IMG/VR virus record: IMGVR_UViG_3300028797_000169
Location: 1,286 to 65,285 of that record
Length of the DNA: 64,000 nt
Reading direction: 5' to 3' (one strand)
Source of the DNA: a virus
Lineage: Duplodnaviria; Caudoviricetes
In this document: piece by piece, positions 17,513 to 64,000 of the stretch
Layout: the number at the start of each line of letters is the position of its first letter
How positions within the stretch are numbered: the first letter of the stretch is position 1
Notes under the pieces: model-generated
What the model saw: the letters and a program-made list of their open reading frames with translations, nothing else
Told to the model about the DNA's origin: nothing
Databases searched by the model: none
Program-made: the position numbers and the translations under genes

Positions 17513-17728
17513 ATGATTAAAGTAACAGAAATCAAGCAAGGTCCCGGTACTAAGGCAGATGTAACTTTATTTGCCGACACAAAAGAGGAAATCACCTCTG
17601 GAATGGTTGTTATAGGACTTCCTGAAGGAATTGAGCCTGCTTTTGGTAGTTCTGTTATCACCGCAGATGGCGATATTGCTTTCTTAAAGAGTGACGGAAC
17701 TTGGAACTGGATTGGCGGTGAGGCTTAA
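17513..17728 (+). CDS. Small hypothetical (possibly virion-associated) protein
   Basis: RBS AAGGAGG, ATG 17513, coupled to the next gene. Confidence 0.7.
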   Translation: MIKVTEIKQGPGTKADVTLFADTKEEITSGMVVIGLPEGIEPAFGSSVITADGDIAFLKSDGTWNWIGGEA

Positions 17729-18615
17729 TGGATAGTAAAGACATTAAAGCCTTAGTAATGGCTAAGAAGATTGCGGGCGGTTCAGGTGGCGGCACATATC
17801 AAGAAAAAGCAATTACTCCTGATTTTTCTGGTGCGGATAGTGTTGTTGTTCGTTCAGATAGTGGGTATGACGCACTTTCTTCGGTAACAATTAACAAGCA
17901 CGAAAATTTGGTTGCAGGTAATATAAAGAACGGAGTAACTATTAACGGTGTATCAGGCAGTTTTGCAGGTGAGTCAGTTAAGGCTACACTTGTTGGTTCA
18001 ATAGAAGGAACTCTTGCGACAGCCCTTAATAATCAATCCATTCAAATAACAGAGGCTGGAACATATTTATTGTTAATGTTAGCCACGAGTTACAATGCGA
18101 TAAATCCATCATCTACTAATTTTGTGCTTGTAAGCGGGATTACTCCCTTACGGGGTAACAGAACACAATGGGCGGAGGCAATTGTTTATTCTTTTGGTTC
18201 TGAGGATGTGCCGATAAATATACAAGCCGCAAGGTTTCCAGGCGGTCAACTGCCAGCAGTAATGATGGTGTTTAAGTTGGATTTGCCGTTTACTCCTTCA
18301 GCCACAGTTTACGCGGCAAGTGATGGTTCCTCTGATAGTTTTTTGTATAACACATTACCGACTAATCCAAATATTGAAGCACTGGCAGTTTTTTGTGCGG
18401 CAACGGCTAATACTAGTAGTGCCACATTAATATCTAATATGTCATACAACAGGGACGCTCAAAATAAAAACCTTAGTAGCGCGACAATACTTGAAGGTCG
18501 TACAGCGCAAAATCACGGGTATTATAGTGTTCGTATAGGTAAGTTGGGTGACTTGGCTAACATTTCTTATAAAGCCGCAAACAATTTGCCCATGGGATTA
18601 TTCATATTTAGTTAA
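17728..18615 (+). CDS. Fibre/spike-like structural protein
   Basis: GGSGGG linker; QEKAITP...DSGYDALSSVTI...NLVAGNIKNGVTINGVSG motif recalled from phage fibre proteins. Confidence 0.55.
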   Translation: MDSKDIKALVMAKKIAGGSGGGTYQEKAITPDFSGADSVVVRSDSGYDALSSVTINKHENLVAGNIKNGVTINGVSGSFAGESVKATLVGSIEGTLATALNNQSIQITEAGTYLLLMLATSYNAINPSSTNFVLVSGITPLRGNRTQWAEAIVYSFGSEDVPINIQAARFPGGQLPAVMMVFKLDLPFTPSATVYAASDGSSDSFLYNTLPTNPNIEALAVFCAATANTSSATLISNMSYNRDAQNKNLSSATILEGRTAQNHGYYSVRIGKLGDLANISYKAANNLPMGLFIFS

Positions 18616-18654
18616 AGCACTTGACCTCATCTACATATATGATAAACTTCAAGT

Positions 18655-19272
18655 ATGAGTGAGTTTTTAAATCTAAGTGACGCATTATTCGAAGGTGTGG
18701 GCGAGTATCGAATACCAAAGATACTCCCCACAACCGAGTTGTTCATCAAAGACTGGATTCAGTTCAATTATGTAGCAACAACGAAGAAACATAGAGAGGT
18801 AACAGGCGTACAGTTCTTCTTATATGACCATCAATTTGAAAGAGTATGGAACTATCCGAAAAGGTACGCAGACAGATTAAAAGAATTTGGCGCAGTTTTG
18901 AGTCCAGATTTTAGTATGTATCTGGACTTCCCAAAGGCCGTCCAGGTCTTTCAACACTATAGGAGACATTGGTGCGGTGCGTTTTGGCAAATGAATGGCG
19001 TAACAGTAATACCTACAATAAGGTGGGCATTTAAAGATAGTTATGAGTGGTGTTTTGATGGAGAGCCTGAAGGCGGCATAGTAGCCGTGTCTAACGTGGG
19101 CGCTATGGATAATAAGGAATTAAGAGCATTGTTTAAGGAAGGGTATAATGAAATGCTCACGAGATTGCAACCAAAAGAAGTATTATTCTTTGGACATATA
19201 TTTGACGATTATAAAGGACCAGTGCATTACATAAAATATCAACAAGAGAAAGGACCTCAAGGTGAAGAATAA
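18655..19272 (+). CDS. DUF4417 family protein
   Basis: QFFLYDHQFERVWNYP, VLSPDFSMYLDFP, WCGAFWQMNGVTVIPTIRW, CFDGEPEGGIVAVS; putative promoter TTGACC-16-TAAACT at 18621-18648. Confidence 0.85.
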   Translation: MSEFLNLSDALFEGVGEYRIPKILPTTELFIKDWIQFNYVATTKKHREVTGVQFFLYDHQFERVWNYPKRYADRLKEFGAVLSPDFSMYLDFPKAVQVFQHYRRHWCGAFWQMNGVTVIPTIRWAFKDSYEWCFDGEPEGGIVAVSNVGAMDNKELRALFKEGYNEMLTRLQPKEVLFFGHIFDDYKGPVHYIKYQQEKGPQGEE

Positions 19273-19592
19273 TGGGTGGTAGTTCATATAGTAAAAAAGT
19301 AACAACTAAAGAAGAAGAACCAACAATCAGAAATAAGAAAATGCCTCCTTTCAAAAATGGTGTTTTGACTGCTCAGATGGTTCAGACAGATTTGGATAAC
19401 AATGTTAACAACTTCTCTAAAAACGCTAATGCAAGCGCAGATGAGGTCGCTAAGACCGTTGCAAAGGATTTTAGAGGATTTTATGATGATAGTAAATTTA
19501 GAGCGGCTGGTAACGCCGTAAGGTATGAGGACTCTATTATACAAGTATTAAAAGACAAAAGCGGTCAATGGAAGGCTAGGAAGATTAAGTAA
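19272..19592 (+). CDS. Small basic protein starting MGGS, coupled to DUF4417
   Basis: 106 aa; TAA/ATG overlap. Confidence 0.7.
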   Translation: MGGSSYSKKVTTKEEEPTIRNKKMPPFKNGVLTAQMVQTDLDNNVNNFSKNANASADEVAKTVAKDFRGFYDDSKFRAAGNAVRYEDSIIQVLKDKSGQWKARKIK

Positions 19593-45084: not shown

Positions 45085-45113
45085 TTGACAACCTAGTGAT
45101 TGTGTTATATAAT
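45085..45113 (+). promoter_or_regulatory. Sigma-A promoter for the ssb-polA-glycosyltransferase operon
   Basis: TTGACA-17-TATAAT. Confidence 0.8.
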
Positions 45114-45164: not shown

Positions 45165-45878
45165 ATGGCAAGATTTAGTGGAAAAGACTTTGACAAGTAC
45201 AGTTACTCCAATGACGAAAGAAAAACAGGATTCTTTCAGTTAAAGGACGATAAAGATACGGCAAAGGTTCGTATTCTTTATGAGAGCGCCGACGAGATTG
45301 ATGGTCTGTCAGTTCACGAAGTACAAATTAACGGTAAGAGGAAGTACGTTAACTGTCTTAGGGAATATAATGACCCGATTGATAAGTGCCCGTTCTGTCA
45401 GGCAAAGATGAAGACCTACGCAAAGTTGTATATTCCTTTATACAATGAGGACGCACAACAGTTTCAATTTTGGGAAAGAGGCAGAACATTCTACGGTAAG
45501 ATTTCAGGCCTTGTTAGCAGGTATAAGAATATCGTATCAAGAACGTTTGAAATTGAACGTAATGGTGTTAAGGATGATACAAAGACTGATTATTCCTTCT
45601 ATCCAGTAGATGACCCTGACGGCACAACAATTCAAGATATTCTTGATGACCTTGGGTTCGACGAAATGCCTTCACCTATAGGAACAATCATTCTTGATAA
45701 AAGTGCTAGGGATATGGACTACTATCTTGATAATGGGGCATTTCCTGACAATGATGTTCCTGTTCGCAGACGTAATTCTAATCCGCCGGATACTTCTGAA
45801 GTACCGTTTGAGGAGGATGCACCCACCCCCCGTAGAGGCGGCAGAAGAACACCTGCAAGAGGTACAGATAGATTTTGA
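45165..45878 (+). CDS. Single-stranded DNA-binding protein (gp32-like)
   Basis: FFQLKDDKDTAKVR, HEV, CL...CPFC, FEIERNG, acidic/disordered C-terminal tail. Confidence 0.75.
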   Translation: MARFSGKDFDKYSYSNDERKTGFFQLKDDKDTAKVRILYESADEIDGLSVHEVQINGKRKYVNCLREYNDPIDKCPFCQAKMKTYAKLYIPLYNEDAQQFQFWERGRTFYGKISGLVSRYKNIVSRTFEIERNGVKDDTKTDYSFYPVDDPDGTTIQDILDDLGFDEMPSPIGTIILDKSARDMDYYLDNGAFPDNDVPVRRRNSNPPDTSEVPFEEDAPTPRRGGRRTPARGTDRF

Positions 45879-45897: not shown

Positions 45898-48195
45898 ATG
45901 CAACAGTCGTTGTTTGGCGATATTGTTCGCCCATCTGATAAACAATCTGATATGGCAATAGCAAAAAAGTCAAAATCAAGTAAGAAAGCGCCCACTACTG
46001 TAAAAGGTGGTGGGCTACTTGCTCGAATAGAGTTTATCCGTAAATTTGTTGAAAAGCATTTAGGTAAGTATAAAGACCAGTATCTTTGTATTAGAGACAT
46101 AGAGACCTTACATAGTTACGTGGATACTTGTATAGAAGATGGTAGACTTGCACTTGATACAGAGACAACAGGTCTTAATGTATATAGAGATAAGATTGTG
46201 GGCATAAGTTTACATTCCAAAAATAATAAGCCTGCATATATACCAATTAATCACGTTTCATATGTGACTATGGAGAGATTAGATAATCAACTTGAACCCG
46301 AGCAGATACGTCCCGAACTTGAGAGAATGTTAGACCTTGATTGTGATATGTTCAATGCGGCATTTGACCGTAGAGTAATAAGACATAATATAGGAATAGA
46401 TTTTCCATGCACTTGGGACGCCTCTATTGCGTCAAGAATGATGAATGAAAATGAGCCAAAGAGTTTAAATGGTTTAAAGCCACTTCACTCAAAATATGTG
46501 CTTAACGGACAAGAGGATGAATTTTCATTCGGCGATATATTCAATAACATAGGTTTTGATAAAGTTCCAATAGATATAGCAACACTTTATGCGGCTCACG
46601 ACTCCGTTGTAACAACTGAATTAGCAGATTTTCAGAGAAGATACCTTTATTATGAAGAGGCTGAAGATTTTAGTGCTAGGAATGGTATGAATGGGGTTGC
46701 ATGGACATTTTTCAATATAGAAATGCCGTGTATAGACTGTACTATTGAAATGGAGGAAAATGGCATTAGTCTTGACATAGAGTATCAACAAGAATTATCC
46801 GAGAAGTATCATAAAATAGAGGATGATATACTTGATAAGTTCTATGTGGAGTTAGAGCAGTATGAGCCTCAACTTGATAAGTTACGTTTAAGAGGTATAA
46901 AGATAGACACTCCAATAAACATAAATAGCCCTTCACAATTAGCCAGTCTTATTTATGATGTGCTTAATGTGGGTGTTATTGATGAAAAGAAGCCTAGAGG
47001 CACCGGTGAAGATATATTAGCACAAATAGATAATCCAATAATTAAGTTGTTAATGGAGTATCGTAAGGTCGAGAAACTTATAACCACATATATTGATAAA
47101 ATGCCTAACTGTGTTGAAAGCGATGGTAAGATACATTGTAAGTTTAATCAGTACGGAGCAGATACAGGTAGATATAGTTCTAGCGACCCAAATATGCAGA
47201 ATATTCCTTCTCATAATAAAGACATTCGTAAGATGTTTGTGGCAGATGAAGGCTATGTTCTTTTGTCCAGTGACTTCTCACAGCAAGAACCTAAGTGTTT
47301 AGCCGCTTTATGTAAACGAGACGGTGACCCACAGATGTATGATACATTTATGGCGGGCAAAGACATATATAGTGAACTTGCCAGTAAGTCTTTTCATAAG
47401 TCTTATGAGGAGTGTTTAGAGTTTAGACCTGATGGCTCTACTAATAAAGATGGTAAAGAACGTAGAGGGCAAGCAAAAATAATCCTACTTAGTGTGTTGT
47501 ACGGAAGAGGAGAAGAGAGTATTGCCGAACAACTTAATTGTAGTATAGAAGAGGCTAGGGCTATTAAAGAAAGTGTGTTTAAAGGTTTTCCTGCTATACG
47601 CAAGTTTGAAAAGGACTCACTTGACTTTGCATATTATAATGGGTATGTTACAACAGTTTGCGGACGTAAGAGAAGATTGCCTGACTTAATGCTTGATGAT
47701 TATGAGGTTAGGTGGGCAGATGAAACTGCAGGTTCTGGTGACGCATTAGACTTTGATGATTTATCAAATGAAGTGCCACAGTCAATACAAGACAAGTGGA
47801 TATATAGAATATCGAGGGCCTCGTTTAAAGACCGTAGAAAGATATTTGAGCAGGCGAACAAGCAGGACGGTGTTTGGATAGTAGACAATCGTAAGAAGAT
47901 AAGTGAGGCTACAAGACAATGTGTTAATAGTAGAATACAAGGTAGTGCCGCTGACTTAACCAAACTTGCTATGATAGAATTATTAAATAACGGAAAGTTG
48001 ACCAAATTAGGTTTTAAATTGTTGTTACAAATACACGACGAGGTAATAGGAACTTGTCCTAAGAAAAATGCAAAAGAGTGTGCAAGATTGTTAGCCGAAA
48101 CAATGTCAAAAGCGGCAGAAAAAATATTAGAAATGCCTATCAAGTGTGATGTTGAAATAACAGAATGTTGGTACGGAGAAAGTGTGACAGTATGA
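45898..48195 (+). CDS. polA: Family A DNA polymerase with 3'-5' exonuclease
   Basis: Exo DTETTG, NAAFD, YAAHD; GRYSSSDPNMQNIP; motif A DFSQQEP, motif B RGQAKIILLSVLYG, motif C QIHDE. Confidence 0.95.
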   Translation: MQQSLFGDIVRPSDKQSDMAIAKKSKSSKKAPTTVKGGGLLARIEFIRKFVEKHLGKYKDQYLCIRDIETLHSYVDTCIEDGRLALDTETTGLNVYRDKIVGISLHSKNNKPAYIPINHVSYVTMERLDNQLEPEQIRPELERMLDLDCDMFNAAFDRRVIRHNIGIDFPCTWDASIASRMMNENEPKSLNGLKPLHSKYVLNGQEDEFSFGDIFNNIGFDKVPIDIATLYAAHDSVVTTELADFQRRYLYYEEAEDFSARNGMNGVAWTFFNIEMPCIDCTIEMEENGISLDIEYQQELSEKYHKIEDDILDKFYVELEQYEPQLDKLRLRGIKIDTPININSPSQLASLIYDVLNVGVIDEKKPRGTGEDILAQIDNPIIKLLMEYRKVEKLITTYIDKMPNCVESDGKIHCKFNQYGADTGRYSSSDPNMQNIPSHNKDIRKMFVADEGYVLLSSDFSQQEPKCLAALCKRDGDPQMYDTFMAGKDIYSELASKSFHKSYEECLEFRPDGSTNKDGKERRGQAKIILLSVLYGRGEESIAEQLNCSIEEARAIKESVFKGFPAIRKFEKDSLDFAYYNGYVTTVCGRKRRLPDLMLDDYEVRWADETAGSGDALDFDDLSNEVPQSIQDKWIYRISRASFKDRRKIFEQANKQDGVWIVDNRKKISEATRQCVNSRIQGSAADLTKLAMIELLNNGKLTKLGFKLLLQIHDEVIGTCPKKNAKECARLLAETMSKAAEKILEMPIKCDVEITECWYGESVTV

Positions 48196-49067
48196 GAGAG
48201 TTTGCCATATTTATTATCACGCACAGGCGACCAGAATTACAACACACTTATTCTTCTTTATTGCGCTGTGGATATACAGGTCAGGTGTATTTTGTCCTTG
48301 ACGATACAGACGATACCATACAACAATATATAGATTTGTTTGGAGCAGATAATATCTATATCTTTAATAAAAACCACTATATTAATTCCGCAGAGTATGA
48401 TAATGGTGATTGTAAAGAAGTGTTTGCTAGTGCCGTATATGCTAGACGTGCCGTTGAGGACATTGCAGTTCATTTAGGACTAAAGTATTTTGCCGTGGCA
48501 GACGACGATATATTGGATTTTGTCATTCGCTATCCCATAAATAATAGTTTGAAAAGGTTTAAAATAACAAACTTCGATGGTATAATAGAGGCATATTTAG
48601 ATATACTAGACTGCGGTGTTGCGTGTGTTGGATTTGGAAGAGCAAATTCTTATTTTGGTGGAGCAATTGCATTTTCTCCAGAAAAAATGAATAAGAGGGT
48701 GATAGTTACAAATTTCTTCATAAGAAACGGCTCGTACAAAGTTAGTTGGCGGGCGTGGACATTTGAAGATGATATTACTGTTTTGTGTGACAGTTTATCA
48801 GGAAACCTATGGTTATCAATACCGTATGTTCAGCAAGTGCCGTCAGAGTTTACAAATGTTCGAGGTAAAGGAGGTAATGTTGAATTATATCAGAAAAATG
48901 GTAGATATGAGGGATGTTTTACTGAGGTAAAGTACATGCCATCTACCATACAGATAAAGTGCGAGGACATTAATAATATAAACAACGTAAAAACTACAAC
49001 ATTGTTACGCCATGTGGATAAATGTTATCCAAAAATACTTAGTAGTTCATATAGAAAGGAGAAATAA
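48192..49067 (+). CDS. GT-A fold glycosyltransferase 1 (TAGT/GREB1-like)
   Basis: FIITHRR, VLDD, ARRAVEDIAVHLGLKYFAVADDD, FEDD, C-terminal PKILS. Confidence 0.75.
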   Translation: MREFAIFIITHRRPELQHTYSSLLRCGYTGQVYFVLDDTDDTIQQYIDLFGADNIYIFNKNHYINSAEYDNGDCKEVFASAVYARRAVEDIAVHLGLKYFAVADDDILDFVIRYPINNSLKRFKITNFDGIIEAYLDILDCGVACVGFGRANSYFGGAIAFSPEKMNKRVIVTNFFIRNGSYKVSWRAWTFEDDITVLCDSLSGNLWLSIPYVQQVPSEFTNVRGKGGNVELYQKNGRYEGCFTEVKYMPSTIQIKCEDINNINNVKTTTLLRHVDKCYPKILSSSYRKEK

Positions 49068-49068
49068 T

Positions 49069-49455
49069 ATGCAGACACAGTATGAACTTTTTGGAAAACC
49101 TGAGGTTAATGATAACTCTCATTATACAAAGAAAATTCAGGTGCCACAATATTTGCCATCAGAGGTTGAACCAAAACCCTTTGAATTAGTGGATAAGTCA
49201 CGTTACACAAAGTTAATGGCAAGCATAAACACAGCCAACATATCAGATGAGGACAAAGAGTTTTTAAAGTTGGCTGCAACTCGACACCTGGTGTTTAATT
49301 ATGCAAAAATTGCGGATTACTATGCTCACGCCGATAAAACAGTTCAGGAGTTAATGGAACAGTCCGCTTTAGTTATTATTGATGTTGACGACGCCATAGC
49401 AAATGGATATGTTAGATTAAGTTCCACAATGAAAAAGATAATAGAAGGTAAATAA
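49069..49455 (+). CDS. Small glycosyltransferase-associated protein
   Basis: YTKKIQVPQY...EFLKLAATRHLVFNYAKIADYYAHA...LMEQSALVIIDVDDAIANGYV; N-terminal QYELF. Confidence 0.8.
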   Translation: MQTQYELFGKPEVNDNSHYTKKIQVPQYLPSEVEPKPFELVDKSRYTKLMASINTANISDEDKEFLKLAATRHLVFNYAKIADYYAHADKTVQELMEQSALVIIDVDDAIANGYVRLSSTMKKIIEGK

Positions 49456-50309
49456 TGATGCGTTCAGATTTTGCGGTGTTTGTGTTAAGTCATGGAAGAG
49501 CCAGCACATTAAAAACCATTCCAACCCTGCTAAGTAAAAACTACACAGGTCGATGGTATATAATTGTAGATGATGAGGACAATCAAATAAACGAGTATAT
49601 TCAAGTTTGGGGAGAAGAACATATTATAGTCTTTAATAAGAGGGAAGTCGGTAAAACATTTGATATAATGGACAATTTTACTGGCAGACAGGTGCCCACA
49701 TTTGCTAGAAATGCCGTATATGATATTGCTAAGAAACTAGGTTTAAAATATTTTTTTGAGGCAGATGATGATTTAGTAAATTTTAGATTTAGGGTTGTTG
49801 ACGATACTGGCTCGTTAAAAACAGTTTATATACAAAATATGGATGAAGTAATTACTGCCTACTTAGAATATATGGATAGTGCGCCAATTGATATTTTAGC
49901 ATTCGGACAAACTGGCGATTTAATAGGAGGAAAACAATCTAAATTATTTTCCAAGATATTTCTTAGAAAAGCCATGCAGGGTTTTTTTGTTAGGGTATCA
50001 AATCCAATACAGTATGTGGGCAGATTTAATGATGATGTTAATGCCTATGTACACGCAGGAAAAGTAGGATATTTGTTGATAACTTTTCGTGACGCTATAA
50101 TGGACACATTGCCTACCCAAGTAAATAAGGGAGGCATTACTGAGAATTATTTAAAGTATGGTACATATGTTAAGTCTTTTTATTCGGTTATGTTAGAACC
50201 AAGTGCAGTATCAATAGATGTTATGGGGGACGGTAATTATCGAATACACCATAGTATTTCTTGGAATAATGCGGTACCAAAGATAATAAGCGATAAATAT
50301 AAAAAATAG
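49455..50309 (+). CDS. GT-A fold glycosyltransferase 2 (TAGT/GREB1-like), paralogue of GT1
   Basis: FVLSHGRA, IVDDED, ARNAVYDIAKKLGLKYFFEADDD, GRFNDDVNAY, NKGGITE, PKIISDKYKK. Confidence 0.8.
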   Translation: MMRSDFAVFVLSHGRASTLKTIPTLLSKNYTGRWYIIVDDEDNQINEYIQVWGEEHIIVFNKREVGKTFDIMDNFTGRQVPTFARNAVYDIAKKLGLKYFFEADDDLVNFRFRVVDDTGSLKTVYIQNMDEVITAYLEYMDSAPIDILAFGQTGDLIGGKQSKLFSKIFLRKAMQGFFVRVSNPIQYVGRFNDDVNAYVHAGKVGYLLITFRDAIMDTLPTQVNKGGITENYLKYGTYVKSFYSVMLEPSAVSIDVMGDGNYRIHHSISWNNAVPKIISDKYKK

Positions 50310-50323
50310 GAGGACAAATATTT

Positions 50324-51064
50324 ATGAAAATAGGATTATTTCCAATGGTTGCAGATGTTATGCACGCTGGACACATACTTGCTATGAAAGAGGCAAAGGA
50401 ACACTGTGATTATTTGATTGTGGCACTATACTGTTTGCCAAAAAGAAAGCCAAACATTGTTCAAAGTATTTTTGAGAGATATACCCAATTAAGTGCGGTT
50501 AAGTATGTGGATGAAGTAATACCGTACGAAGATGAGGCAGATGCGCACAGGGTGATACTTTCATTAAAATTTGATGTGTACTTTTTAGGTTCAGATTATA
50601 TAAATAAGCCGTTTGAGGGAAAAGAGTTACTTAAAAATCTTGGTAAAGAAGTTTATTATTTGTCAAGAAACCACACAATGAGTAGCACAAAATTAAAATC
50701 AGATATTATAGGTGGTAATGTTCAAAAATCTGCCTCGGATCCTAAGGTTATTGCTGTTGATTTTGATGGTTGTATTTGCAAGTTTGCCTGGCCAGATATT
50801 GGTGAGCCTAACTTAGAAGTTATTGAGGCGCTAAAAGAAGAAAAACGTAATGGCACAAAAATAATCTTGTGGTCTTGTAGGTGTGGTGAGTTATTAGATG
50901 AGGCTATTAAGGCATGCTCTAATTGGGGCATAAGTTTTGACGCAGTTAATGAAAATATTCCAGAGAGATTAATACGATACGGATATTCAGAGTCAAGAAA
51001 AATAAGTGCCGATGAGTATTGGGATGATTTAGCCGTAATAAAGGGAAAAACAGAAAGTGTTTGA
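50324..51064 (+). CDS. Cytidylyltransferase (TagD-like) fused to a HAD-family phosphatase
   Basis: DVMHAGH (HxGH), VDEVIPY, GSDY, RNHTMSST; then IAVDFDGCI, ILWSCR, ADEYWDD. Confidence 0.85.
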   Translation: MKIGLFPMVADVMHAGHILAMKEAKEHCDYLIVALYCLPKRKPNIVQSIFERYTQLSAVKYVDEVIPYEDEADAHRVILSLKFDVYFLGSDYINKPFEGKELLKNLGKEVYYLSRNHTMSSTKLKSDIIGGNVQKSASDPKVIAVDFDGCICKFAWPDIGEPNLEVIEALKEEKRNGTKIILWSCRCGELLDEAIKACSNWGISFDAVNENIPERLIRYGYSESRKISADEYWDDLAVIKGKTESV

Positions 51065-51089
51065 AAACCAAATAATTGTGTAGTATAAT
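51061..51089 (+). promoter_or_regulatory. Sigma-A promoter for the sliding clamp gene
   Basis: TTGAAA-17-TATAAT. Confidence 0.65.
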
Positions 51090-51121: not shown

Positions 51122-52249
51122 ATGAGATTTAGTATTAATGCAAAAACAATGTTGGACCTGGTGTCTGATGTATCAAAAGGAGTAGGTAACAATAAACTTC
51201 TTCCTATTACTAGTATGATAGGCATTAAGTATCTGGGTAATGTTGTAGCCCTGTCAAGTTTTGACGGTTCTAACTTATTGAGAGTTAAAGCGATTGCCAG
51301 TGGACAAGATATTGAAGATGGTGAGGTTACTGTAAATGCAGATATGTTTATAGGACTTATTTCCAAGTTATCTGACTGCTCCTTGATTTCATTTGAAACG
51401 GACAAAGAAAGACCTATTCTTAATGTACTTGCATATCAAGGTGTAAAGAGTGTAGGTTCTTATAAACTTGAGTTACCGCTTAATGAAGATGGTGAAGTAA
51501 TTAAATATCTTGACCTTGACAGTAAAATAGGTGATAAGAGTAACGCGGTTGTTTGTGAGTTGCTCATAGACACCATTAAAGATATGATTGCAAGTTGTAA
51601 GCCTGCACTTGCTACTGATGTCGCCGAAAGTTGTTACACGAACTATCTTGTTTCCGAAAAGATTATTTCAACAGACAGAACAAGGGCGGTATTCTTAGAT
51701 AATGCAAGTTTCAAGGAAGGTGATAAGCATTATCTTTTAGGCAGACAGTTCGTAGACCTGTTGACATTGACAGGACCTAGTGTTGAATTGTATTTCTTTG
51801 ATGACCACATTTACGCAACAGATGAATGGGGCACCGAAATAGTGACAAGCAGTAACGGAGCACTCAATGAGTTTGATGAAGCGGCTACGGAGAAGATGTT
51901 GAAAATTGATTTTCCGTCTATGTGTAAGGTTAAGAAGTCTGAATTGCTTAATACCTTAAATCGTATGTCCTTATTCTGTTCAAAGTATGATAATAATAGC
52001 ATTGATATATCCTTTGATGATACCTCAATGAAGATTAGTTCCTTGAAGAACAGCGCGGTTGAAAGTATAGACTATACAGAGTTTATGAAGGTATCTCCAT
52101 TTGACATAAGGATTGATGTAACACTTCTTTTGCCGCATATTAAGTCTTATGCGTCAGATATTGTGGAGTTGCATTTTGGAAACAAAATGTGTATAAAGTT
52201 AGTAGATGGTTCGGTTACTCACATTATTGCGTTAATAACCAAATCATAA
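51122..52249 (+). CDS. dnaN: DNA polymerase III beta-like sliding clamp
   Basis: 375 aa (beta-clamp size); LPITSMIGI, ISTDRTRA, ELLNTLNRMSLF, IELHF; three-domain spacing. Confidence 0.8.
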   Translation: MRFSINAKTMLDLVSDVSKGVGNNKLLPITSMIGIKYLGNVVALSSFDGSNLLRVKAIASGQDIEDGEVTVNADMFIGLISKLSDCSLISFETDKERPILNVLAYQGVKSVGSYKLELPLNEDGEVIKYLDLDSKIGDKSNAVVCELLIDTIKDMIASCKPALATDVAESCYTNYLVSEKIISTDRTRAVFLDNASFKEGDKHYLLGRQFVDLLTLTGPSVELYFFDDHIYATDEWGTEIVTSSNGALNEFDEAATEKMLKIDFPSMCKVKKSELLNTLNRMSLFCSKYDNNSIDISFDDTSMKISSLKNSAVESIDYTEFMKVSPFDIRIDVTLLLPHIKSYASDIVELHFGNKMCIKLVDGSVTHIIALITKS

Positions 52250-56842: not shown

Positions 56843-57817
56843 ATGAGTACCACGAAAAAGAGTACCAAAGAAGTAACATCGGCAGTGCTAATACCTGCAA
56901 ATTCTAAGCCCGCAGGTTTTGCAGAACTCGAAACAGGGTTCGGAGTAATGCTTGAGGGCATTAAACAGGAAGTTCGTAACTTCATTTCCACAGAATACGG
57001 GCCCATAAAGAGAACAATCACCCTTAACGTAGACGGAAAGCACAAAGAACTCAAAGGCTATCTCCACGAGAAGTTTGATACGGTTCTCAAGTTCGTATCA
57101 AACAATGAGCCTGTGTTCTTGTCAGGTCCTGCAGGTTCAGGTAAGAACTATATCTGTAAGCAGGTTGCAGAGTCTTTGGGCTTGAAGTTTTACTTTTCCA
57201 ACGCAATTACACAAGAGTACAAGTTGACAGGCTTTACAGACGCAATGGGTAAGTACCAGCAGACACAGTTCTTTCAGGCGTTTACTAAGGGCGGTTTGTT
57301 TATGCTTGACGAGGTAGACGCAAGTATTCCTGAAGTTCTTGTCATTCTTAATGCGGCTATTGCCAACAAGTATTTTGATTTTCCAGCACCTATCGGATAC
57401 AGAGAGGCACACCCTGACTTTAGAGTTGTAGCCGCGGGTAATACAACAGGTCATGGCGCAGATTATGAGTACATTGGTCGTAATCATCTTGACGGAGCAA
57501 GTTTGGATAGATTTGCTTTGGTAAGCATTGATTACAGTAAGGCAATCGAGGACGGTCTCGCAGGTAACATAGAATTGGCTGATTTCTGCCGAGAGTTTAG
57601 AAATGCTAGTAAGAAGGCAGGTATTAGTACCATTGTTTCTTATCGTGCCATTGAAAGACTTGCTAAGATGATACCAATAATGACACTTGAGGACGCATTG
57701 AAGTACTGTCTTGTAAAAGACTTAGAGAAGGACGATTTACATCAGATACTTTTGGAGTTAGGGTGGTCAAAGTATAAGGACGCACTTGACAACTTGTACG
57801 CCAGTATGGAGGGATAA
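56843..57817 (+). CDS. MoxR/CbbQ-type AAA+ ATPase
   Basis: GPAGSGKN, LDEVDA, AHPDFRVVAAGNT, LDGASLDRF, SYRA. Confidence 0.88.
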   Translation: MSTTKKSTKEVTSAVLIPANSKPAGFAELETGFGVMLEGIKQEVRNFISTEYGPIKRTITLNVDGKHKELKGYLHEKFDTVLKFVSNNEPVFLSGPAGSGKNYICKQVAESLGLKFYFSNAITQEYKLTGFTDAMGKYQQTQFFQAFTKGGLFMLDEVDASIPEVLVILNAAIANKYFDFPAPIGYREAHPDFRVVAAGNTTGHGADYEYIGRNHLDGASLDRFALVSIDYSKAIEDGLAGNIELADFCREFRNASKKAGISTIVSYRAIERLAKMIPIMTLEDALKYCLVKDLEKDDLHQILLELGWSKYKDALDNLYASMEG

Positions 57818-57818
57818 T

Positions 57819-58682
57819 ATGTCGGTCATAAAAGAAAAAGATATTACCTTAGATGGTAAAAAGTATTCAGTCCATGCCGAACTATATAACTCTACAAAAA
57901 GTGTTCTTGACGACCTAAAGTCAAGAACTACCAGAATAAGTGGTTATGAAATGAAGGACTCCGATATACACAAGAGTTGGCACGGCGTTGATAACTGGAA
58001 TGAGGCTTTAGAGTTGCTGAGAGACGGATATAAGCCGATAGTTGAACAACTCAAGTCAACTTTGAAAAGTAAGACCAGAACAGAAAAGAAAACCGCAGTA
58101 GTTAATGCAGTACAGGGATTTATGCCGTCTGTTCCCCTCGCGTTAAAAAACCTTCCTGAGTGTATGCTCACAGTGGATAGAAATGTTCCTGCAGCCCGAG
58201 TTATTGACCTGTATTATGATATGTCCTCAACCTACAGTAAAACTGTTGATGATTTTCTTAAGGCGGGCAAAGTTCTGCTTTCTGTGATAATTGGACTTGA
58301 AAAGCAAGGCTATAGGTTTAATATGTACGCGGTACAAAGTTATCCTAGATATTCTAGCGGTACTGTGGATTTCTTATGTGTAAAGGTGAAATCTAGCGAC
58401 AAACCTTTGGACATTAAGCGAATGAGTTTTTCCTTAATACATCCTGCGTTTTTTAGAGTTATTGGATTTGACTGGCAGGGCAAATCTCCGATTACGAGAG
58501 ACCTGGGTTCTGGTAGAGGTGGGGACTTTTTTAGAGATTTTTCAACTTATACCAGAAATCTTATTGTAAAAGAAATGTTTGGAGAGAATGCCCATTATGT
58601 GTCAAGCACTAACTTGATTGATGGAAAGTATGAGCCTAATATTGTCAAGGAGGCACTTGAAGATGGAAAAGATAAAAAATAA
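57819..58682 (+). CDS. vWA-like partner of the MoxR ATPase
   Basis: Degenerate MIDAS YYDMSST; HPAFFRVIGF; adjacent to the MoxR gene. Confidence 0.65.
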   Translation: MSVIKEKDITLDGKKYSVHAELYNSTKSVLDDLKSRTTRISGYEMKDSDIHKSWHGVDNWNEALELLRDGYKPIVEQLKSTLKSKTRTEKKTAVVNAVQGFMPSVPLALKNLPECMLTVDRNVPAARVIDLYYDMSSTYSKTVDDFLKAGKVLLSVIIGLEKQGYRFNMYAVQSYPRYSSGTVDFLCVKVKSSDKPLDIKRMSFSLIHPAFFRVIGFDWQGKSPITRDLGSGRGGDFFRDFSTYTRNLIVKEMFGENAHYVSSTNLIDGKYEPNIVKEALEDGKDKK

Positions 58683-61214: not shown

Positions 61215-62258
61215 ATGGAAAGTTTAGCAATTAAATATCGTCCAAAAACGTGGAGCGATGTGGTTGAGCAGAGTGCTACAAAGACAATTTTGCAAAACCA
61301 ATTGGATACTGGTGAGATTAAAAATGCTTATCTCTTTTGCGGCGGTGCAGGAACGGGCAAGACCACCTGCGCTCGCATTTTTGCGAATGAAATAAATAAG
61401 CACGTTGGAACACCGATAGAGTTAGACGCGGCTAGTAATAACTCGGTTGATGATGTAAGGAAACTTATAGAGCAGGCTCAATCCGCAAGTATTGATAGTG
61501 AGTACAAAGTGTTTATAATGGACGAGGTTCACGCATTGTCTAATAGTGCTTGGCAGGCTATGTTGAAGATACTTGAGGAGCCGCCAAAGAAGTCTGTATT
61601 TATAATGTGTACTACTGACCCACAAAAGATACCTAATACAATCTTGTCGAGAGTGCAGAGGTTTGACTTTAAGAGGATAAGTCAAGAAGGTATTGTTAAT
61701 AGGCTTTCACTTATTGTTAGCGAGGAGAATGTTGGCGGTGATACTAAGGAAGAATGTGCTATTGTTGACGAGGCTTTAAAGTATATCGCTAGATTGGCGG
61801 AAGGTGGTATGCGTGACGCAATCACAATGTTGGATAAGTGCTTAGCATATTCAACTAAGTTAACACTGGACAATGTCTCTAGTGCGTTAGGAACGGCTAA
61901 TATTGTTACTATGCTTGACCTTACAAATAGTATCCTGAGTAAAGAGTTAAAGCGCATTGTAGGCACAATAAATATACTTCATAGCGAAGGAAAAGACCTG
62001 AAGTTGTTTATAAGACAGTACACAGATTTTATCCTGGATATAAACAAGTTGTATCTACTTGGTGATGTTAAATACACAAAGTTACCTGACATTGCCGAGA
62101 TTAGACAACTTACGGAAGAGAGTAGTGAATACTTTGACGCAACGATGGACTTACTTGATGAATTAATTAAGTTAGGCGTAGCGATAAAGTGGGACAGTTC
62201 ACCAAAGTCCGTGATAGAGGCAACATTAATTATGTTTAGTAGGAGGATTGAAACGTGA
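61215..62258 (+). CDS. dnaX: Clamp loader gamma/tau-like subunit
   Basis: KYRPKTWSDVVEQ, GGAGTGKTT, ELDAASN, DEVHAL, LKILEEPP, TILSRVQRF, GGMRDA. Confidence 0.93.
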   Translation: MESLAIKYRPKTWSDVVEQSATKTILQNQLDTGEIKNAYLFCGGAGTGKTTCARIFANEINKHVGTPIELDAASNNSVDDVRKLIEQAQSASIDSEYKVFIMDEVHALSNSAWQAMLKILEEPPKKSVFIMCTTDPQKIPNTILSRVQRFDFKRISQEGIVNRLSLIVSEENVGGDTKEECAIVDEALKYIARLAEGGMRDAITMLDKCLAYSTKLTLDNVSSALGTANIVTMLDLTNSILSKELKRIVGTINILHSEGKDLKLFIRQYTDFILDINKLYLLGDVKYTKLPDIAEIRQLTEESSEYFDATMDLLDELIKLGVAIKWDSSPKSVIEATLIMFSRRIET

Positions 62259-63061
62259 TTGGACAAACAAGATTAAAGGAGCAAATAGAGAGACAATGGG
62301 AGACAGATAAGTTTCCCTCTTTTGCTATCTTTGTGGGACCGAGGGGTTGTGGTAAGCGAACAATGATAAAGGAGATTGTTAAAGACAATAACCTTATTTT
62401 TAGTGAAATTCCAACAACAGTTGATGGCGTAAGAGAGTTACAATACTTAATCAACAGGTCAAGTGACGTGGTTTACAGTATAAACAACATTGACAGTTTA
62501 TCTCAGGCCGGGTGTAATGCACTTCTGAAAATTGCAGAAGAACATGATGATAATACAATCATAGCCACTTGTGAGAATATCGAGAATGTTCCAACAACAA
62601 TAAGAAGTAGGGCAGTGGTATATCAGTTTGACGAATACACACAGGACGAGTTATGCGATTTTTGTGAGGAGCGCGGTTATGAGGTAACTGACTTTGTAAT
62701 GTCCGTTTGTGAGACACCTGGCGACATTGAGGAACTTAATAAGTATGATATTGAGGAATTTAGGAACTTTATATTTAAGGTAATAGAGAATGTTGCGTCT
62801 GTGTCTGGTGCAAATGCTTTTAAAATAGCGGATAAGATTTGTATTAAGAGTGACGAAGGATATGACTTAAAGTTATTCTTAAAGGCGTTTTCCAGTATTT
62901 GCGTTGATTATATGATGGACAAAGATGTAAACAATAGTTTGAAGTTTGCTAAGGCCGTTGCTATTACCGGAAACATATTAGCAGACCTTAACATAAAGTC
63001 CATAAACAAACAGATGTTGTTTGATACATGGTTGCTTGATGTAAGGAGTGCATGGTCGTGA
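62255..63061 (+). CDS. holB: Clamp loader delta-prime-like subunit
   Basis: FVGPRGCGKRT, ALLKIAEE, TTIRSRA (SRC-like). Confidence 0.75.
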   Translation: MIGQTRLKEQIERQWETDKFPSFAIFVGPRGCGKRTMIKEIVKDNNLIFSEIPTTVDGVRELQYLINRSSDVVYSINNIDSLSQAGCNALLKIAEEHDDNTIIATCENIENVPTTIRSRAVVYQFDEYTQDELCDFCEERGYEVTDFVMSVCETPGDIEELNKYDIEEFRNFIFKVIENVASVSGANAFKIADKICIKSDEGYDLKLFLKAFSSICVDYMMDKDVNNSLKFAKAVAITGNILADLNIKSINKQMLFDTWLLDVRSAWS

Positions 63062-63981
63062 ATATAACAGATGTTAAAAAGCAGATAAAGGAAAAGTCTT
63101 TATCTTCCTTTTACATCTTCACGGGAGAAGAAATAGAGGTTCAACGCATATACATAAACAAGATAGCCGAAGTGGCCAATATGTCAGTAGTCAGGGCTAA
63201 TAGTATATCAGATATATGGTACACAATGACTAGACCTTCATTGATAGATGAAAAGCACGTTTACGTGGTGCGTGACGATAAGGACTTTAACTCTAATACA
63301 ACCTTGCAAAAGCAATTACAGGAAGATGTGCTTAATGGTAACATACTGATTATCTTGTTAACTAGTGTCGATAAAAGAACAATACTCTATAAGACGTTTA
63401 AAGACGCTATAATCACGTTTGAACATTTAAGCACAGATGTACTCATTAAATATGTCCAACGCGAAATAGCACTAAATACAAGCGATATAAAGCACTTAAT
63501 AGAGTTATGCGAAAATGATTATTCAAGAATATTGTTGGAGATAGATAAAATAAAGCGGTATGCAACGAATGGTGTAGATAAGGCATTTAAAGAACTTGTC
63601 GAGCAGGGCGTAATATATTCTCCGCCAAAAGATGCAATCTTTGATTTTGTGGATGCAGTATTGCGTAGACAGGTTGGAAGAGCATATAATCTATTAGAAC
63701 AATGTTATGCAGTCGGTGAAAGTAATGTGGCTATATTGTCTGTGTTATATACAACGGCTAAACAAACGTTACAGGTGCAAAGTTGTGAAAGCCGTGACAT
63801 AGCACAAGCAACAGGGTTAACCGCATGGCAAGTTAAATGTGCTAAAGAACGTATGGGTAAGTATTATATAGGCGAACTAGTAGGTATGTTAAGACTTATC
63901 CAGAAGATACAAAAAGATATTGTAACAGGGCAGATGGACGAAAGTATGTCCGTAGAGTATTTTTTGGTGAATGTACTATGA
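63052..63981 (+). CDS. holA: Clamp loader delta-like subunit
   Basis: FYIFTGEE, ELCENDYSRILLEIDKI, IFDFVDAV, IQKDIVTGQMD. Confidence 0.8.
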   Translation: MVVNITDVKKQIKEKSLSSFYIFTGEEIEVQRIYINKIAEVANMSVVRANSISDIWYTMTRPSLIDEKHVYVVRDDKDFNSNTTLQKQLQEDVLNGNILIILLTSVDKRTILYKTFKDAIITFEHLSTDVLIKYVQREIALNTSDIKHLIELCENDYSRILLEIDKIKRYATNGVDKAFKELVEQGVIYSPPKDAIFDFVDAVLRRQVGRAYNLLEQCYAVGESNVAILSVLYTTAKQTLQVQSCESRDIAQATGLTAWQVKCAKERMGKYYIGELVGMLRLIQKIQKDIVTGQMDESMSVEYFLVNVL

Positions 63982-64000
63982 GAGATTATAAGGCTAACTA

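Follow-up and report, generated by a model that had tools for sequence, protein, structure and literature searches.

What would a phage do with two glycosyltransferases placed between its DNA polymerase and its sliding clamp? The question is raised by a stretch of 64,000 nucleotides (the window), covering bases 1286–65285 of the 65,285-bp IMG/VR record IMGVR_UViG_3300028797_000169, a member of Caudoviricetes from a bovine gut metagenome. Between the genes for a family A DNA polymerase (PolA) and a beta sliding clamp, the window encodes a first glycosyltransferase (GT1), a small partner protein designated X, a second glycosyltransferase (GT2) and a fusion of a nucleotidyltransferase (NT) with a HAD-type phosphatase domain. 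The preliminary description of the window had reported four coupled genes at 48192–51064 in the polA operon, and the coordinates, the number of genes and their coupling all proved to be correct. About two thirds of some 25,000 phage contigs with DNA-type glycosyltransferases (GTs) have no known acceptor-making enzyme, and the function of these GTs is acknowledged to be open (bioRxiv 10.1101/2023.12.21.572611). The analysis of this cassette leads us to favour, with moderate confidence, glycosylation of the phage DNA that is coupled to the replisome and fed by a phage-made nucleoside diphosphate (NDP)-sugar.

The GT1 (291 aa, 48192–49067) and GT2 (284 aa, 49455–50309) genes, like all genes of the window, are located on the + strand. 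The two proteins are paralogues with 32% identity over 291 columns (E = 3e-36). Against the Pfam TAGT family PF20691, with a gathering score of 27.5 bits, GT1 scored 60.4 bits (E = 3e-16) and GT2 99.2 bits (E = 3.8e-28), so both belong to the TAGT family, and their earlier assignment as GT-A glycosyltransferases stands. The shared motifs described previously were found again, as ARRAVEDIAVHLGLKYFAVADDD and PKILS in GT1 and as ARNAVYDIAKKLGLKYFFEADDD and PKIIS in GT2. Both proteins match phrog_842 (GT2 with E = 7e-55), which is named T2/T6 beta-glucosyl-HMC-alpha-glucosyltransferase. The DxD aspartates D105 and D106 and eleven more columns are invariant across 55 sequences, GT1 included; hence, both copies look catalytically competent.

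In a maximum-likelihood tree, 23 GTs fall into two clades. In the widespread core clade (19 members), GT2 groups with the single GT of most relatives and with GTs from a jumbo phage, Lactobacillus phage phi jlb1 and Vibrio phage pv27. GT1 and its three counterparts form the accessory clade (four members, support 99/99), which is rare, divergent and fast-evolving. GT2 shares 36–44% identity with enzymes from phages of Lactobacillus, E. coli, Vibrio and Haloarcula; it is the core enzyme and probably the primary transferase. In the two-GT clusters described in the literature, priming falls to one GT and extension to the other (bioRxiv 10.1101/2023.12.21.572611). By analogy with these clusters, which also suggest the order of the two enzymes, GT1 is plausibly an accessory paralogue that extends the modification by adding a further sugar, and the two-step sugar addition supposed in the preliminary description keeps its plausibility.

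The AlphaFold2 model of GT2, built from the 55-sequence alignment (pLDDT 89.4), has a GT-A fold. TAGT-domain proteins among predicted viral structures matched the model with TM values of 0.86–0.90, and the predicted structure of the T-even beta-glucosyl-HMC-alpha-glucosyltransferase with a TM of 0.63. The Foldseek search against PDB returned only generic GT-A enzymes (TM ≤ 0.51) and did not discriminate the acceptor. Comparison with solved structures (VIA) gave Z = 13.3 and a root-mean-square deviation of 4.0 over 204 aligned residues, with many GT-A enzymes tied within one Z unit. A phmmer search of GT2 against PDB sequences yielded no match at E ≤ 1.

Partner X (128 aa, 49069–49455), which belongs to no Pfam family, shares 50% identity (E = 1e-33) with residues 134–239 of the phi jlb1 ParB-like protein, encoded directly upstream of a GT. 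In Vibrio phage pv27, a gene upstream of the GT encodes a stand-alone protein of 139 aa to which X is 47% identical; X also matches positions 154–216 of phrog_620. An exhaustive phmmer search (E ≤ 1e-3) placed X in a family of 1183 clusters at the 50% level. Among the 150 best-scoring of the 1183 cluster representatives, 102 are long forms (>200 aa) that end in the X domain and 48 are short. The ParB N-domain was found in at least 19 of the 40 long X-family proteins scanned, and ParB_N (PF02195) has no match at E ≤ 1 in X or in the whole genome of the window phage. Judged by these alignments, X is what elsewhere forms the C-terminal part of the ParB-like proteins found with TAGT GTs, here as a detached protein. 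ParB-like proteins are able to activate a phage DNA dioxygenase on dsDNA (PMC13229309).

The model of X features disordered residues 1–30 and a helical core (residues 31–100, pLDDT > 90). The fold search with the core found no solved match (best Z = 3.5), a null result that is not proof of a new fold, and phmmer against PDB sequences gave matches at chance level only. Two linear elements are conserved in the disordered tail, namely the N-terminal QYELF and the near-invariant segment YT.K...PQY.P (Y19, P26, Y28).

The QYELF element (X residues 4–8, 49078–49092) is a predicted beta-clamp-binding motif (CBM) of the QxxLF type within the N-terminus MQTQYELFG. The prediction draws on its conserved position in relatives, on its enrichment in stand-alone X proteins and on model docking. 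A hydrophobic-F dipeptide occupies the same N-terminal position in the window X and in 11/11 relatives of the replication-module family, in contexts that include MPLFK, INLFG, VSLFD, FDLFD and LEFFN; the ParB-fused, Vibrio and jumbo-phage forms of X compared with them carry no such dipeptide there. Among the library representatives, [LIMFV]F was present in the first 14 residues of 16/32 stand-alone X proteins compared to 7/102 fused ones (Fisher p = 3e-7), and the strict QxxLF, with matches including QLDLF and QLRLF, in 6/32 compared to 0/102 (p = 1e-4). The respective values for unrelated open reading frames (ORFs) were 73/423 and 4/423. The PolA proteins of the same phages have motifs of clamp-binding type at their N-termini as well: MQQSLFG in the window, the canonical QLSLF in relative L011 and LW variants in others. 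A full-text literature search for clamp-binding motifs together with phage GTs found no paper, and both the clamp-motif form of the adaptor and its mutual exclusion with the ParB fusion appear to be new.

The phage beta sliding clamp (375 aa, 51122–52249) was identified by its matches to DNA_pol3_beta (E = 3.3e-10) and phrog_947, and its profile aligns with solved beta clamps over almost the full length (E = 1.7e-12). Complex prediction with the clamp alignment and X residues 1–35 gave an ipSAE of 0.65 (0.66, 0.65 and 0.63 in separate runs), compared to 0.44 for the best control; this ipSAE mark was reached by 58/80 solved complexes and by 2/110 mismatched pairs. The pLDDT of the partner was 45–47, and at least 49% of the contacts were common to the three runs. 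Residues 2–10 of X were modelled against clamp residues 184–189, 252–259, 290–293, 330–332, 356–357 and 368–375, which we take, from the E. coli beta clamp, to be the canonical peptide pocket of domains II/III with the C-terminal tail. The clamp is the predicted docking platform for both PolA and X. Besides the clamp and the family A polymerase, the phage encodes a complete bacterial-type clamp loader at 61215–63981, with DnaX-like, delta-prime-like and delta-like subunits. The set of clamp loader, clamp and PolA fits a phage replisome built around clamp-binding motifs.

The fourth gene of the cassette (50324–51064) encodes the NT-HAD fusion. The HIGH-signature NT domain (fusion residues 1–130, 50324–50713) contains a CTP_transf_like region at residues 11–123 (E = 1.2e-9) and exceeds the cut-offs of PF01467 (38.9 bits, cut-off 21) and TIGR00125 (37.5 bits, cut-off 27.7). 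The preliminary description had read the fusion as an activated-donor enzyme, and the analysis supports this. The nearest solved relative of the NT domain is TagD (glycerol-3-phosphate cytidylyltransferase) of B. subtilis (1COZ, E = 6.5e-12). The HxGH signature, the K-x-K pair (K40/K42, K44/K46 in TagD) and R52 (R55 in TagD) are kept; the TagD sequence RTEGISTT reads RNHTMSST, and there is a 4-residue deletion. The scores against TagD (g3p_cytidyltrns TIGR01518, 54.7 bits, E = 1e-14, cut-off 165.4) and against RfaE/HldE domain II, a heptose-1-phosphate adenylyltransferase (rfaE_dom_II TIGR02199, 56.3 bits, E = 3e-15, cut-off 181.5) are equal and amount to about one third of the cut-offs. The two scores therefore do not single out one nucleotide or phospho-substrate for NT, and the TagD identity suggested earlier is not supported. 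The role of a nicotinamide mononucleotide adenylyltransferase in NAD salvage was considered and set aside on indirect grounds, as the nearest families are TagD, ECT and RfaE and the gene is fixed beside a GT in 12 loci, including the window.

The small HAD-type phosphatase domain (fusion residues 140–238, 50729–51064) carries the DFDG motif of the BT0820 family. With 85.3 bits against NF046079 (E = 4.5e-24, equivalog cut-off 165) and a match to PDB 2OBB (E = 3.9e-16) in which DFDG is aligned, it is, by its scores, a relative of the BT0820 phosphatases and not an equivalog. Similar NT-HAD fusions form several virus-only clusters, and cellular HAD-CTP_transf fusions are annotated in ADP-heptose synthesis. 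Enzymes of the GT-A fold with DxD move glycosyl groups from NDP-sugars. Since such enzymes require a glycosyl donor, an NDP-sugar is likelier here than a polyol activated with cytidine diphosphate (CDP). Transfer of a CDP-activated polyol-phosphate, as put forward in the preliminary description, or of CDP-glycerol was rejected on these grounds; the phage also has no TagF-like or LicD-like transferase. Heptose on 5-hydroxymethylcytosine (5hmC) required a phage HAD-kinase, a cytidylyltransferase and a GT together (bioRxiv 10.1101/2023.12.21.572611), and the NDP-arabinose (reported as UDP-arabinose) that RB69 and DLP3 use for DNA is made through kinase, HAD phosphatase and nucleotidyltransferase steps (PMC13326640). 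By analogy, an ADP- or CDP-heptose-like donor would be the closest precedent. The combination of phosphatase and nucleotidyltransferase in NT-HAD also follows the logic of the last two steps of ADP-heptose synthesis, where the HAD enzyme is of GmhB type; unlike the RfaE/GmhB pathway, however, the phage has a HAD domain of BT0820 type and encodes no kinase or isomerase.

Enzymes that could make a conventional acceptor were searched for across the whole 65.3-kb record, using all + strand ORFs of at least 50 aa not overlapping a longer ORF for the Pfam scans. No match to Tet_JBP, Thymidylat_synt or DNA_methylase (C5-methyltransferase) was found at E ≤ 1, and the scans showed no methyltransferase, radical SAM, TGT or 2-oxoglutarate (2OG) oxygenase. 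The absence of a TET/JBP dioxygenase, a hydroxymethylase and a DNA methylase, noted earlier for the window, thus holds for the entire record. The two ends of the record have an exact 119-bp repeat in common (genome positions 19–137 and 65164–65282, the latter being window positions 63879–63997 and the former lying just outside the window). The assembly therefore closes on itself, as a circle or with a terminal repeat, and the genome is effectively complete, despite the record class of 'linear, 91%'. Five relatives, three of which are 99–100% complete (one of the three having terminal repeats), likewise gave no match to Tet_JBP or Thymidylat_synt. Several conserved proteins of the phage have no family assignment. 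The 237-aa single-stranded DNA-binding protein (SSB) was considered as a hidden base-modifying enzyme and rejected, as it belongs to phrog_14578.

The composition of the cassette was compared among relatives. X is located beside a GT in 15/19 loci, and in three further metagenome contigs a CBM-bearing X gene overlaps a TAGT gene, with DnaB or a beta clamp nearby. The pair of X and GT was found in phages of Lactobacillus, E. coli, Salmonella, Vibrio, Nocardia and Haloarcula. Its host range spans Gram-positive, Gram-negative and archaeal hosts, which have DNA in common and different cell walls. The NT gene adjoins the GT module in 12 loci, including the window; it lies 3′ of the GT in 11/12 and directly upstream of X in the twelfth. 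In the window and in 3/11 relatives, NT carries the fused HAD domain, and the others have a 65–72-aa ORF instead. The number of GT copies per locus varies from 1 to 5, the highest value being found in a 115-kb relative (L007:5797–11221), where five TAGT paralogues surround one X and one nucleotidyltransferase. In this relative and in L008, polA falls into two parts, separated by an insertion that encodes 326 or 556 aa and is intein-, intron- or homing-endonuclease-like.

Other genes of the relatives vary around the same core. In L005, L006, L009, L011 and L014, the slot between polA and X, where the window has GT1, is taken by a protein of about 400 aa (e.g., L006:5516–6724) with no Pfam or PHROG match. 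Some relatives possess an HD-domain protein between polA and the clamp (L012:5783–6433) and a dUTPase directly after the nucleotidyltransferase (L012:9426–10052); both are nucleotide-pool enzymes that the window lacks. In a bovine-metagenome relative (ENA sample ERZ27270767; L022:716–3046), two TAGT genes flank a radical SAM gene (304 aa), which directly follows an X starting with MKQLDLFG and has DnaB and a beta clamp nearby. This radical SAM protein is a possible candidate, by its family and location, for an oxygen-independent base-priming enzyme, and it has no counterpart in the window phage.

Among the systems already described, the closest are the TAGT pathways associated with 5mYOX (TET) or ThyS (PF20691; bioRxiv 10.1101/2023.12.21.572611; Burke et al. 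2021, PMC8256090), which share the Pfam family and the GT-A DxD fold with GT1 and GT2. Tandem GTs, one priming and one extending, occur there too, and sugar-nucleotide enzymes (an epimerase, or a HAD-kinase with a cytidylyltransferase leading to heptose on 5hmC) are co-encoded, as the donor enzyme is in the cassette. These pathways, however, make the acceptors 5hmC or 5-hydroxymethyluracil, whereas the window genome has no C5-methyltransferase, 5mYOX or thymidylate-synthase homologue, and they do not include the partner protein or its clamp motif. The published survey lists orphan TAGT GTs beside DNA polymerase, clamp and ParB-like genes without an explanation (bioRxiv 10.1101/2023.12.21.572611). 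The T2/T6 beta-glucosyl-HMC-alpha-glucosyltransferase, related to GT2 by both profile homology and predicted structure, acts on a DNA base that already carries a sugar, attaching another to it, and is a plausible model for GT1. T-even phages make hydroxymethylcytosine with gp42 and carry out the first glucosylation with GT-B enzymes, none of which are present in the window phage.

Two further systems resemble the cassette through its partner protein. The dioxygenase 5mYOX176 needs a dedicated ParB-like partner, ParB176, to act on dsDNA (O'Toole et al. 2026, PMC13229309). Partners of this type lack a DNA-binding domain and combine a nucleotide-binding domain in the N-terminal part with a further domain in the C-terminal part, and the X family corresponds mostly to such a C-terminal part. 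The likeness lies in the domain plan: the enzyme of the cassette is a GT and not a dioxygenase, and in X the ParB N-domain is wholly missing, with a short motif of clamp-binding type in its place. The orphan pairs of a ParB-like protein and a TAGT in temperate phages (Lactobacillus phi jlb1, c5 and Ld17; E. coli vB_EcoS-611R4-type; Haloarcula HHTV-2) are similar both in the GT, at the identities to GT2 given above, and in the C-terminal 110 aa of the ParB-like protein, which are about 50% identical to X; the priming enzyme is lacking there as well. Unlike the cassette, these pairs are located directly upstream of terminase genes, retain the ParB N-domain and comprise one GT and no nucleotidyltransferase.

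Taken as a model, the replisome-coupled glycosylation would proceed as follows. GT2 as the core TAGT enzyme would work with X, which would hold the GT via its conserved linear motif YTKKIQVPQYLP and its helical domain. The N-terminal QYELF would anchor X to the phage beta clamp, a contact suggested by the complex model, and newly replicated phage DNA would, as a result, be glycosylated during synthesis. GT1 would add a further sugar. NT-HAD would perform the last two steps of donor synthesis, from sugar bisphosphate to sugar-1-phosphate and on to NDP-sugar, and the sugar coat would shield the phage DNA from host nucleases. No known route would provide the acceptor as a hydroxymethyl-pyrimidine or 5-hydroxycytosine; it would be a canonical base or else come from an unrecognised enzyme. 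DNA as the target, already supposed in the preliminary description, appears most likely in view of the TAGT family, the partner derived from ParB-like activators of DNA-modifying enzymes, the clamp-binding motif replacing the ParB domain, the location of the cassette within the SSB-PolA operon and the occurrence of the core pair in phages of hosts without teichoic acid. A more specific version can be formulated, in which anaerobic gut phages attach sugars during replication to canonical bases that bear no hydroxyl group (or to another oxygen-independent acceptor), with the TAGT tethered to the clamp via an adaptor that in temperate phages is fused to a ParB-type CTP clamp. We consider this version possible but unlikely.

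Several points weigh against replisome-coupled glycosylation of DNA. The margin of the complex score over the control is narrow (+0.21, with 0.20 required), and, as solved clamp–peptide complexes exist, the passing of the model may reflect likeness only and is not proof of binding. No sugar kinase was found in the genome, which leaves the donor pathway incomplete unless the host supplies the substrate; with no kinase encoded, a phosphorylated precursor must come from the host. Neither the closed genome nor the three complete relatives contain a hydroxylating or hydroxymethylating enzyme, and we know of no glycosyltransferase acting on canonical DNA bases. Among solved structures, GT2 comes closest to generic GT-A enzymes, with TarP and RmlT, both wall-teichoic-acid transferases, among them. 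In a rival explanation, the target is DNA and the acceptor is a modified base provided by an unrecognised oxygen-independent enzyme of the phage or the host, the GTs performing conventional O-glycosylation of a hydroxylated base. An unannotated phage protein or a host enzyme could then take the part that a radical SAM enzyme may have in some relatives. Fe/2OG dioxygenases require O2, and the anoxic habitat, where TET-type oxidation cannot work, is in line with such an enzyme, as are the radical SAM gene between two TAGT genes near the QLDLF-bearing X and the conserved phage proteins without a family. However, the genome of the window phage lacks homologues of radical SAM enzymes, TGT, methyltransferases and thymidylate synthase, the place beside the cassette is taken by SSB, PolA and the clamp and by no conserved unannotated gene, and temperate phages of 31–38 kb carry only the pair of ParB-like protein and GT. 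This explanation is unlikely.

If the acceptor were instead a protein, either a replisome or virion protein or X itself on the invariant YT.K...PQY.P, the clamp tether would serve to bring the enzyme to its substrate. The lack of a DNA acceptor pathway in the genome agrees with this, as do the Tyr/Thr/Pro-rich linear segment of X with its invariant Y19, P26 and Y28, disordered in the monomer model, and the presence of the peptide-glycosylating GT-A enzymes SunS and GalNAc-T among the fold matches. The same segment is, however, equally well explained as a GT-binding peptide, and the variable number of GTs with a dedicated donor enzyme resembles the diversification of DNA glycans under restriction pressure. 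Moreover, DNA bases or sugars linked to them are the substrates of the characterised enzymes named for TAGT/phrog_842 and of the phage GT-A enzymes that have been tested (bioRxiv 10.1101/2023.12.21.572611), and a protein acceptor is less probable still. The least probable of the readings weighed here is that the cassette modifies an envelope polymer (wall teichoic acid, a cell-wall polysaccharide or a lipid-linked precursor), thereby blocking superinfection or altering the receptor, with NT supplying the CDP- or NDP-activated block. The endolysin of the phage consists of CHAP and CW_7 and thus points to a Gram-positive-like host; TarP, TarS and RmlT are among the nearest solved GT folds, and the nearest solved relative of NT, TagD, acts in teichoic-acid synthesis. 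Prophage TarP and Gtr systems are precedents for phage-driven envelope glycosylation. Against this, the fold matches are those of a generic GT-A enzyme (TM ≤ 0.51, Z of about 12), none of which stands out, and the GT2 clade with its partner recurs at 36–44% identity in E. coli, Vibrio and Haloarcula phages, the hosts of which have no teichoic acid. The partner is derived from ParB-like proteins and carries a clamp-binding motif, the genes lie in a replication operon and not in a lysogeny or moron position, and neither a membrane segment nor a flippase is present.

The organisation of the locus is that of one operon. A sigma-70-type consensus promoter, TTGACA-17-TATAAT (45085–45113, 12/12 match), precedes the genes SSB-PolA-GT1-X-GT2-NT/HAD, and the scan found no + strand terminator-like site from this promoter to 51064. 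The SSB gene (45165–45878; phrog_14578, E = 2.7e-47) lies upstream of PolA in 12 relatives as well. PolA with its 3′-5′ exonuclease (45898–48195; Pfam DNA_pol_A, E = 1.7e-88) is followed by GT1, the ATG of which overlaps the polA stop codon (ATGA). X starts 1 nt past the GT1 stop (TAA-T-ATG) and has the ribosome-binding site GAAAGGAG 7 nt upstream of its start; X and GT2 overlap in TAATG, and the 14-nt spacer between GT2 and NT-HAD contains an AGGAGG site. A near-consensus promoter, TTGAAA-17-TATAAT (51061–51089, 11/12 match), is located ahead of the clamp gene. The four gene products of the cassette have no transmembrane-like segment and are soluble. When the 6.3-kb region was compared with GenBank phages by Megablast, no match was obtained. 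A look-up of sequencing runs found two, both from a single bovine-gut sample that may have yielded the contig.

Other parts of the window contain further genes of note. An AAA_5 (MoxR-like) ATPase gene and an overlapping gene for a DUF7192 protein, a conserved-looking pair, are located at 56843–58682, between the clamp and clamp-loader genes. Three tRNA genes (Gln-TTG, Met-CAT and Leu-TAA) lie at 240–1057, the first two being about 560 nt apart. The region between the large terminase and portal genes (17728–19592) encodes a 295-aa protein without a family, a DUF4417 protein (18655–19272) and a 106-aa ORF. The DUF4417 protein (Pfam, E = 8.8e-54) matches phrog_940 'nuclease' only in the C-terminal half of the latter (positions 166–339 of 388), and may be another detached domain of a larger DNA-acting phage protein.

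The cassette represents a concrete and testable handle on the question of orphan GTs. Orphan GTs of this kind are already listed in published surveys, and the clamp tether is the new element. The two forms of the obligatory partner, ParB-fused or with the clamp motif, both represent ways to ride on DNA, which speaks for DNA as the substrate. Should the target prove to be something else, the many phage 'DNA glycosyltransferase' annotations would need revision. A sugar placed on DNA without a hydroxylated base would, if confirmed, be a new nucleic-acid chemistry, and, should the more specific version with the clamp-tethered TAGT hold, the cassette would encode the first clamp-tethered DNA hypermodification enzyme in prokaryotic viruses. 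Such a system would bear on restriction evasion, on the sequencing of gut viromes and on enzymatic DNA labelling.

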